DNA of 64,000 nucleotides from assembly GCF_003334315.1 (NCBI RefSeq), contig NZ_QOWR01000001.1; one strand, given 5' to 3'. Both the position numbers and the translations under genes were made by a program. Under the pieces are notes generated by a model. The model was given only the letters and a program-made list of their open reading frames with translations. It had not been told where the DNA came from and did not search any database. Numbering within the stretch: position 1 is the stretch's first letter; each line of letters begins with the position of its first letter. Source of the stretch: Escherichia coli. GTDB taxonomy: Bacteria > Pseudomonadota > Gammaproteobacteria > Enterobacterales > Enterobacteriaceae. Positions 26,271-26,719 of this stretch are shown here, one piece after another.

Positions 26271-26364
26271 TAATCAAAAGGAAACAAAAATCATTGTAAA
26301 CCATGCCATCTTTTTAGAGATTACCAGCAGAAAATTCCTTGTTCGAAATTTAGCAGTGCAAGCT

Positions 26365-26520
26365 ATGGAAAAACTTACAACGGAACTACACTCCTTAAGT
26401 GAGATGGACCGAAGACATGTAGTCTCTATTTTAGCCGAAATAGCTAATGGCTATGATGATTTTAATGACATGTTGATTTATTTAGAATTTTACCCGAATC
26501 ATAAGATTCTGATATCTTAA
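26365..26520 (+). CDS. 51-aa small ORF in the AT-rich islet (possibly YrhD); coding status uncertain
   Basis: ATG 26365 to TAA 26518-26520: MEKLTTELHSLSEMDRRHVVSILAEIANGYDDFNDMLIYLEFYPNHKILIS; below the ORF-track size cutoff. Confidence 0.3.
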   Translation: MEKLTTELHSLSEMDRRHVVSILAEIANGYDDFNDMLIYLEFYPNHKILIS

Positions 26521-26719
26521 ATAAGAAAATCCCGTTCGACGTTCTGAAAAAGAAATCATAAAATATTAGCAGATACTTATTTCGTGACTATATCTTATCC
26601 GATGAACTTTTTTCAAAACCAGCATTTAATAATATCTTTGACGAAGATGAACGCGTCTTTGCTCAATGTATCACACAGGAATAATAATATAACACTCAAC
26701 AATAATATTTATTATAATT

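Follow-up and report, generated by a model that had tools for sequence, protein, structure and literature searches.

Decayed orphan genes are known from the toxin/immunity arrays of Rhs systems, contact-dependent inhibition (CDI) systems and type VI secretion systems (T6SS). The locus analyzed here, positions 26271-26719 of a 64,000-nucleotide window of an Escherichia coli genome (contig NZ_QOWR01000001.1; the genes, relics and promoter-like sites described below are on its plus strand), lies between yrhA and yrhB, and three described genes or families come close to it. The yrhD gene of E. coli K-12 (Swiss-Prot P58037, RefSeq WP_001307436.1), which we take to be b4612, encodes the same 51 amino acids (aa) as the open reading frame (ORF) in this segment and occupies the same place between yrhA and yrhB. 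A family of proteins of about 82 aa, with members in Pantoea dispersa (WP_141495966.1), Leclercia (WP_347113878.1) and Ralstonia (QKM40946.1), can be aligned with an E. coli frame over its whole length, and both the family and this frame are found downstream of a toxin/immunity pair, which in E. coli consists of an Hcp-HNH and a SUKH gene. The third is a Citrobacter gene encoding 85 aa (WP_006687449.1, in C. youngae and C. koseri), which follows yrhA directly, between yhhY and ggt. Like the orphan-module arrays, the segment is AT-rich, horizontally acquired and packed with small genes in various states of decay behind a toxin/immunity pair; unlike them, it contains neither a fragment of a toxin C terminus nor a pre-toxin repeat of the VENN, PAAR or Rhs core type. 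The comparisons described below favor, with a probability of about 0.75, an explanation in which a T6SS effector-immunity cassette was acquired horizontally and its 3′ tail, the segment, is decaying and holds two dead small genes.

The segment between yrhA and yrhB

The segment extends from the yrhA stop codon (26268-26270) to the yrhB ATG (26720), and its 449 bp contain 30.7% G+C, compared with 52.9% for the whole window. A preliminary description of this DNA, made from the sequence alone, had noted an unassigned AT-rich stretch of about 450 bp with a 51-codon ORF and without any ORF of 60 aa or more. The size, the composition and the ORF content were as described: the ORF runs from ATG 26365 to TAA 26518-26520, starts with MEKLTTELHSLSEMDRRHVV and has the translation MEKLTTELHSLSEMDRRHVVSILAEIANGYDDFNDMLIYLEFYPNHKILIS, while the ORF list of the window has no ORF of at least 60 aa wholly inside the segment. 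The stretch is not unassigned, however, as the ORF at 26365-26520 is annotated as yrhD, with a product identical to WP_001307436.1 ("protein YrhD"). The segment is 100% identical over all 449 bp to K-12 and to many other genomes, in which the same coding sequence coordinates are annotated, and among 5,426 complete E. coli genomes searched with megablast, 3,809 carried it, 2,786 of them with at least 99% identity, 543 with 95-99% and 480 with 90-95%, while about 30% of the 5,426 genomes were without it.

The preliminary description had also mentioned an insertion sequence (IS) near this locus in laboratory strains, which is correct for K-12 but does not apply to the window. The gene order in K-12 is yhhY, tssD (yhhZ), yrhA interrupted by IS1, yrhD, yrhB and ggt, and strains resembling the window have the same order minus IS1, which is the sole difference between the K-12 locus and the window. 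When the two were compared, as the description had proposed, the same segment was found in K-12, with the 768-bp IS1 inside yrhA, 106 bp upstream of it. The site of insertion, marked by the 9-bp target duplication GACATTAAA, corresponds to 26157-26165 in the alignment to the K-12 locus (L001), and it is unoccupied in the window. The statement that no transposase ORF or IS-like repeats are present was borne out as well, because blastn detected no IS1 similarity anywhere in the window, and the segment has no meaningful inverted or direct repeats. A covariance-model search of 26271-26719 returned no Rfam family reaching its gathering score. Within yrhA, at 26070-26166, the eukaryotic snoRNA snoR69Y matched with 28.7 bits, below its gathering score of 45, and given the AT-rich sequence this match almost certainly arose by chance.

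The limits of the acquired DNA were defined by comparison with strains that have yrhB alone. In the strains with the order yhhY-yrhB-ggt (K71-77, locus L008), the match to the window ends at 24362 and resumes at 26704, which delimits a variable cassette of 2.34 kb at 24363-26703, located between yhhY and yrhB and consisting of yhhZ, yrhA and a tail. The G+C content is 0.31-0.34 in the cassette and 0.5-0.57 in its flanks. Hence, the segment, except for its last 16 bp (26704-26719), forms the 3′ tail of the cassette.

The YrhD protein itself gave little indication of its origin. No relatives outside E. coli were found either by a word-index search, in which YrhD alone retrieved only short E. coli proteins, or by an exhaustive HMMER search of 1.84 billion representatives, and there was no match to Pfam, NCBIfam, PADLOC or PHROGs. 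The Swiss-Prot and EcoGene identifiers of YrhD are quoted in a published study, where its gene cluster has 68 members and zero substitutions per site (PMC3575317). This is likely explained by gene callers reporting the ORF mainly where it is intact, so that the cluster samples essentially one young allele. An apparent allele with 76% identity, present in Logan assemblies (P0013 and P0015; loci L032 and L033), differed from YrhD only by C-to-T-type changes; the contigs of P0013 were riddled with tiny ORFs. It looks as if reads with bisulfite conversion or similar damage had been assembled into genomes, and this allele was discarded. The existence of the ORF is not by itself statistically remarkable, as an ATG-initiated ORF of at least 51 codons arose in 12-17% of shuffled versions of the segment, and an 82-codon stop-free run, like that containing the 51-codon ORF, in 4-7%.

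Homologies of the yrhD frame and of the DNA downstream

The yrhD frame is open from 26245, after a stop codon at 26242-26244, to 26520. The comparison of this extended frame with the 82-aa protein of Leclercia showed 39% identity over 56 aa (tblastn E value of 1.2e-8 against the fetched loci; Smith-Waterman z = 15, with none of 5000 shuffles scoring as high), in an alignment that begins 31 codons upstream of the annotated yrhD ATG. In 7.3 Gb of plasmid records the best match of the E. coli frame outside E. coli was the Pantoea homolog (E value of 7e-3, 84% coverage). In a multiple alignment the frame from 26263 to 26520, referred to here as relic 1, aligned end to end with the approximately 82-aa family and terminated at the same place. 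The two have in common the motifs K-I-I-x-x-x-A-I-F-L-E, A-V-x-x-M-E-x-x-x-x-E-L and E-I-A-x-x-Y, and the identity of relic 1 to the three members from enterobacteria was 30-35%, and that to the Ralstonia member 23%.

Relic 1 differs from the family in that it has no N-terminal start and a degraded C-terminal motif, and in that it shows neutral substitution and lineage-specific stops. The position of the start codon of the family is occupied in E. coli by GTT (26263-26265), and the first in-frame ATG, GTG or TTG after the stop codon at 26242-26244 is the GTG at 26356. Positions 26245-26274 were invariant in all 14 E. coli alleles examined, none of which has a start codon at the N terminus of the family. 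The annotated methionine of YrhD aligns with the second methionine of an internal "MME" motif of the family. Judging from this alignment, the annotated yrhD is the C-terminal 60% of a start-less gene, begun at a conserved internal methionine. It is without the N-terminal helix and the most conserved motif of the family, KIIADxAIFLEF. No Shine-Dalgarno sequence of the GGAG or AGGA type precedes the yrhD ATG, which is weak evidence, because yrhA and yrhB also have no good ones.

The intact members of the family provide the context for this relic. By tblastn, matches on plasmid records were found in Pantoea, Rahnella, Ralstonia, Streptomyces, Rhizobium and other genera. The Leclercia member follows CdiA and a presumed immunity gene and precedes Imm63 and Imm70, the Pantoea member lies among VENN pre-toxin, nuclease and colicin-immunity genes, and the Ralstonia member is near DUF2247 and filamentous hemagglutinin. 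The intact proteins had no match in Pfam, NCBIfam, PADLOC, PHROG or the sequences of the PDB. In the AlphaFold2 model of the Leclercia protein, which has moderate confidence (mean local confidence score, pLDDT, of 71), three long helices and a short C-terminal one are bundled together, and a Foldseek search of the PDB with this model gave nothing below E = 4 and no convincing structural neighbor. In the same Leclercia locus (L022, 2845-8501) a DUF8093-domain protein and a YrhA homolog form a pair about 2 kb from the CdiA orphan array, from which it is separated by an IS-type helix-turn-helix gene; the order in the array is CdiA, a 160-aa protein, the 82-aa family member, a 74-aa protein, Imm63 and Imm70. 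Thus, both ancestors of the E. coli arrangement occur in one Leclercia toxin-immunity island.

Translation of the segment in three frames revealed, downstream of yrhD and out of frame with it, a second stretch that looks coding: NKKIPFDVLKKKS*NISRYLFRDYILSDELFSKPAFNNIFDEDERVFAQCITQE. Its counterpart was found by checking what follows the yrhA homologs in other Enterobacterales. At the site between yhhY and ggt in C. youngae, an Hcp-ET gene and yrhA are followed 20 bp further by the gene for the 85-aa protein, and the translation of 26523-26681 in the window was 47% identical to the first 53 residues of this protein (tblastn E value of 5e-12 against the fetched loci; Smith-Waterman z = 23, again with none of 5000 shuffles scoring as high). 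When the Citrobacter protein was in turn used to search the 7.3 Gb of plasmid records, it matched only this E. coli stretch, with an E value of 1e-6. The stretch at 26523-26681, referred to as relic 2, corresponds to the N-terminal 53 codons of a homolog of the Citrobacter gene.

In contrast to the Citrobacter gene, relic 2 has no ATG, has lost its last codons and, in the window allele, contains an internal stop. Only residues 2-54 can be recognized, with the homology ending at 26681, and about 31 C-terminal codons, the C-terminal third of the gene, are gone. The position of the expected ATG reads AAT, and an in-frame TAA is present at 26559-26561 in the window allele, where all other lineages have CAA. 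The junction between the stop codon of relic 1 and relic 2 reads TAA-AT-AAG, from which we infer that the loss of the G from an ATG abutting the relic-1 stop may have been a single event accounting for both the missing start and the frame offset. The possibility that yrhD and the frame downstream are one broken gene of about 105 aa was considered and dropped, because synteny shows two separate ancestral genes. The fused reconstruction retrieved only E. coli sequences in the word-index and exhaustive HMMER searches and matched no Pfam family. The intact Leclercia and Citrobacter homologs, YrhD and the fused reconstruction also had no match among the Pfam and NCBIfam families, including the Imm, SUKH and colicin immunity families. 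Rare indel variants of E. coli fuse these frames in different ways: yrhD is joined to relic 2 in P0006, and the extended yrhD frame is joined to the YrhA N terminus in P0025 and to full-length YrhA in P0028 (246 aa).

Lineage comparison and alternative explanations

The alleles compared, 14 from at least four lineages, showed that the yrhD ORF is not maintained in all carriers of the segment. It is intact in three alleles: that of the window and K-12, that of O145:H28 (with N34S) and L034 (with four replacements). In lineage B, which was found in about 413 genomes with its own allele as the query, Y39 is replaced by TAG. In lineage C, found in 411 genomes at 99% identity or more and in 49 others at 95-99%, and including the type strain ATCC 11775 and Nissle 1917, L23 is replaced by TAA, and in three of the four alleles examined the ATG is changed as well, to ATA or GTA. 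The NCBI annotation pipeline PGAP flags the yrhD copies of lineages B and C as pseudogenes, and the ORF is disrupted in roughly a quarter of the carriers, the two lineages together amounting to about 870 genomes.

The substitution pattern was consistent with this decay. The ratios of nonsynonymous to synonymous differences per site (pN/pS), calculated by the Nei-Gojobori method for three lineage pairs, were undefined (0 synonymous and 4 nonsynonymous differences), 2.27 and 2.26 for yrhD, compared with 0.11-0.46 for yrhA, 0.13-0.38 for yrhB and 0.6-0.7 for yhhZ. Of the 19 variable sites in yrhD, 17 were nonsynonymous or nonsense and 2 synonymous; about 20% of synonymous sites is the expectation for neutral drift. 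In the upstream extension of yrhD there were 3 synonymous and 12 nonsynonymous sites (pN/pS of 1.0-1.8), and relic 2 had 7 synonymous and about 20 nonsynonymous changes, one nonsense change and one frameshift. The raw divergence of the segment, 0.03-0.11, was about equal to the synonymous divergence of yrhA, 0.02-0.09. These data place the drift of both relics close to the neutral rate. As a candidate protein-coding gene, yrhD showed no excess of synonymous change, albeit with small counts, and its ORF was not intact across all carrier lineages; a constraint on yrhD like that on yrhA is very unlikely.

These observations can be combined into a scenario of stepwise decay, in which we infer the loss of function, the order of events, the deletion of 1 bp and any role of promoter sites. 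The cassette consists of yhhZ, encoding an Hcp-HNH toxin, yrhA, encoding SUKH immunity, and then small accessory genes. Relic 1 would derive from a gene of about 82 codons belonging to a mostly helical small-protein family of CDI and other toxin/immunity arrays. With its start position now GTT, the full-length protein has no canonical start, and the part that can still be translated is the 51 codons from an internal methionine, which annotation pipelines call yrhD. Relic 2 would be what is left of an 85-codon gene like that following yrhA in Citrobacter. Its start was lost, most simply by the 1-bp deletion described above, its C-terminal third is gone as well, and the window allele has gained the TAA. 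At present the DNA of the segment probably serves as spacing, as AT-rich filler bound by H-NS and perhaps as promoter sites of yrhB, and for nothing else. The preliminary description had placed the segment in a toxin-immunity islet, where orphan immunity genes, displaced toxin-tip fragments or insertion scars could be expected. This was right in kind and is partly supported, as the segment is a cassette tail with the remains of small genes; no toxin-tip fragment or insertion scar was found, however, and instead of a clean orphan immunity gene there is the start-less C-terminal 60% of a longer gene, interrupted by nonsense codons in two E. coli lineages.

Several observations weigh against the decay of yrhD. 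The substitution counts are small, at most 10 per lineage pair, and are compatible with weak selection on yrhD. The commonest allele, matched by 2,786 genomes at no less than 99% identity, has an intact 51-codon ORF that hardly varies, and the ORF is also intact in the minor alleles L014 and L034. RNA polymerase holoenzyme binds upstream of yrhD in vitro (PMC3946193), and even a truncated helical protein might still be produced and be partly active. An alternative explanation is that the 51-aa YrhD is functional in the K-12-type lineage, for example as an immunity-like peptide that has been shortened or as a regulatory one, expressed from a promoter of its own, and that the stop codons of other lineages are secondary. 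This would agree with the intact ORF in about 73% of the carriers and in the two minor alleles, with the retention of the gene in RefSeq and UniProt, and with the sigma-70 promoter-like site TAGAGA-18-TATATT found by a consensus scan at 26183-26212, upstream of yrhD, the hexamers of which are the same as those of a peak of RpoD binding obtained in vitro by genomic SELEX (systematic evolution of ligands by exponential enrichment) and flagged for H-NS (PMC3946193). A functional YrhD is nevertheless unlikely, given that nearly all substitutions are nonsynonymous, that two lineages acquired nonsense codons independently and one of them also lost the start codon, and that the protein is without the N-terminal helix and the KIIADxAIFLEF motif of its parent family and without a Shine-Dalgarno sequence. 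The near-invariance of the common allele extends to the flanking noncoding bases and so reflects recent common ancestry rather than constraint. Quite unlikely, too, is that the 51-aa YrhD, or a full-length product of unconventional initiation, is still made in K-12-type strains as an orphan protective or regulatory protein. If this were true, E. coli K-12 would be a handy model for the widespread helical small-protein family, which travels in arrays of the CDI, Rhs and T6SS kinds, ranges from Enterobacterales to Ralstonia and has further matches in Streptomyces. The more specific proposal of a full-length protein of about 85 aa, made by noncanonical initiation or by ribosomes that shift to the +1 frame where yrhA ends, could draw on the yrhD frame, which is +1 to that of yrhA and stays open over 26245-26520, and on the rare natural fusion of YrhA and YrhD in P0028. 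However, the region 26245-26270 has no slippery motif or stimulatory Shine-Dalgarno sequence, the homologs elsewhere start independently at the position of the relic-1 N terminus, and the upstream extension drifts neutrally, which makes this proposal extremely improbable.

Other explanations assign no importance to the coding frames. The segment could be mainly regulatory, that is, a promoter or 5′ region of yrhB and a platform for H-NS silencing in which coding remnants are incidental. In the cassette-free locus L008 the 109 bp upstream of yrhB (1766-1874) are unrelated to those of the window, and homology begins only 16 bp before the ATG. Because yrhB has different upstream DNA there, its promoter in cassette strains must, as far as can be judged from the sequences, be in the tail or further upstream, unless yrhB is transcribed by read-through from the cassette. 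A promoter-like site, ATAACA-18-TATAAT, was found by a consensus scan at 26689-26718, and the literature reports an RpoS genomic-SELEX peak in the spacer between yrhD and yrhB (PMC5493296) and H-NS-bound "promoter islands" in yhhZ and yrhA (PMC3661553). On the other hand, the promoter-like sites in the region were no commoner than in shuffled sequences (14 versus 12.1 ± 3.1), the binding data were all obtained in vitro, and the stretch 26521-26703 diverges by 0.06-0.09, compared with 0.012-0.030 for yhhZ and yrhA, with no conserved regulatory sequence apparent. A mainly regulatory role is improbable, although it is compatible with a decayed cassette tail rather than an alternative to it. An origin without coding ancestry, either as a chance ORF in an AT-rich noncoding spacer or as a scar of IS excision, could be suggested by the frequency of comparable ORFs in the shuffles and by the IS1 nearby in K-12. 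It is already refuted, and thus almost devoid of probability, by the two independent protein homologies, which are far above shuffles (z = 15 and 23) and significant at the database level; moreover, the window has no IS ends, transposase ORF, repeats or IS1 sequence, and the K-12 IS1 lies inside yrhA, outside the segment.

The cassette, its neighbors and the yhhY-ggt site

Upstream of the tail lie the two other genes of the cassette. The yhhZ (tssD) gene at 24601-25779 encodes an Hcp tube protein with a C-terminal HNH nuclease toxin, of the Hcp-ET1 type, as indicated by NCBIfam and the literature: residues 1-147 match the Hcp family TIGR03344 (E value of 3.8e-34), YhhZ has been assigned to the His-Me finger group (PMC5714182), and the HNH-DNase activity of Hcp-ET1 has been reviewed (PMC6730261). 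The intact yrhA gene at 25776-26270 is the presumed cognate immunity gene of the SMI1/KNR4 (SUKH) type; it matches NCBIfam NF038335, "YrhA family" (E value of 1.5e-36), and "SMI1/KNR4 family" and "Knr4/Smi1-like" occur as source names. The constraint is relaxed on the toxin gene yhhZ and stronger on yrhA, which fits an immunity gene that is kept after the decay of its effector. In some strains (EC1 and O145:H28 12E115) yhhZ is frameshifted. The yrhB gene (26720-27004), assigned to the Imm35 family by the Pfam family PF15567 on record for a product of identical length, is outside the cassette and is present without it in L008. It is a pseudogene in some strains, with a frameshift in O145:H28 12E115 and an internal stop in 2016C-3878. 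The space between the convergent yrhB and ggt contains, at 27011-27034, a G+C-rich hairpin (10 pairs) that has a T-run on the minus strand; it is likely the ggt terminator and perhaps bidirectional.

The interval between yhhY and ggt (24363-27041) has at least four states in E. coli. It contains yhhZ-yrhA-yrhD-yrhB in about 3,760 genomes, and in others yrhB alone, a DUF4225 gene (O157:H7) or no insert (e.g., ST131). In contigs of Citrobacter and other enterobacteria, Hcp-ET/yrhA cassettes at the same site are followed by different small genes, encoding the 85-aa protein or MarR-like proteins of 81-89 aa. The loci L008-L010, L018-L021, L026 and L027 mark this interval as a minor hot spot for cassettes of toxin and immunity genes.

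As yrhD is an already known gene, the finding is an ordinary one, and its meaning lies mainly in how the locus is read. Annotation carries yrhD as protein-coding in K-12 and in thousands of RefSeq genomes, while the comparative evidence indicates two pseudogenes, a start-less one of which yrhD is the tail and another in the unannotated DNA that follows. The approximately 82-aa family may be of interest to those cataloging polymorphic-toxin arrays. The locus as a whole provides a small worked example of how accessory genes, and sometimes the toxin, decay behind a constrained immunity gene, yrhA.

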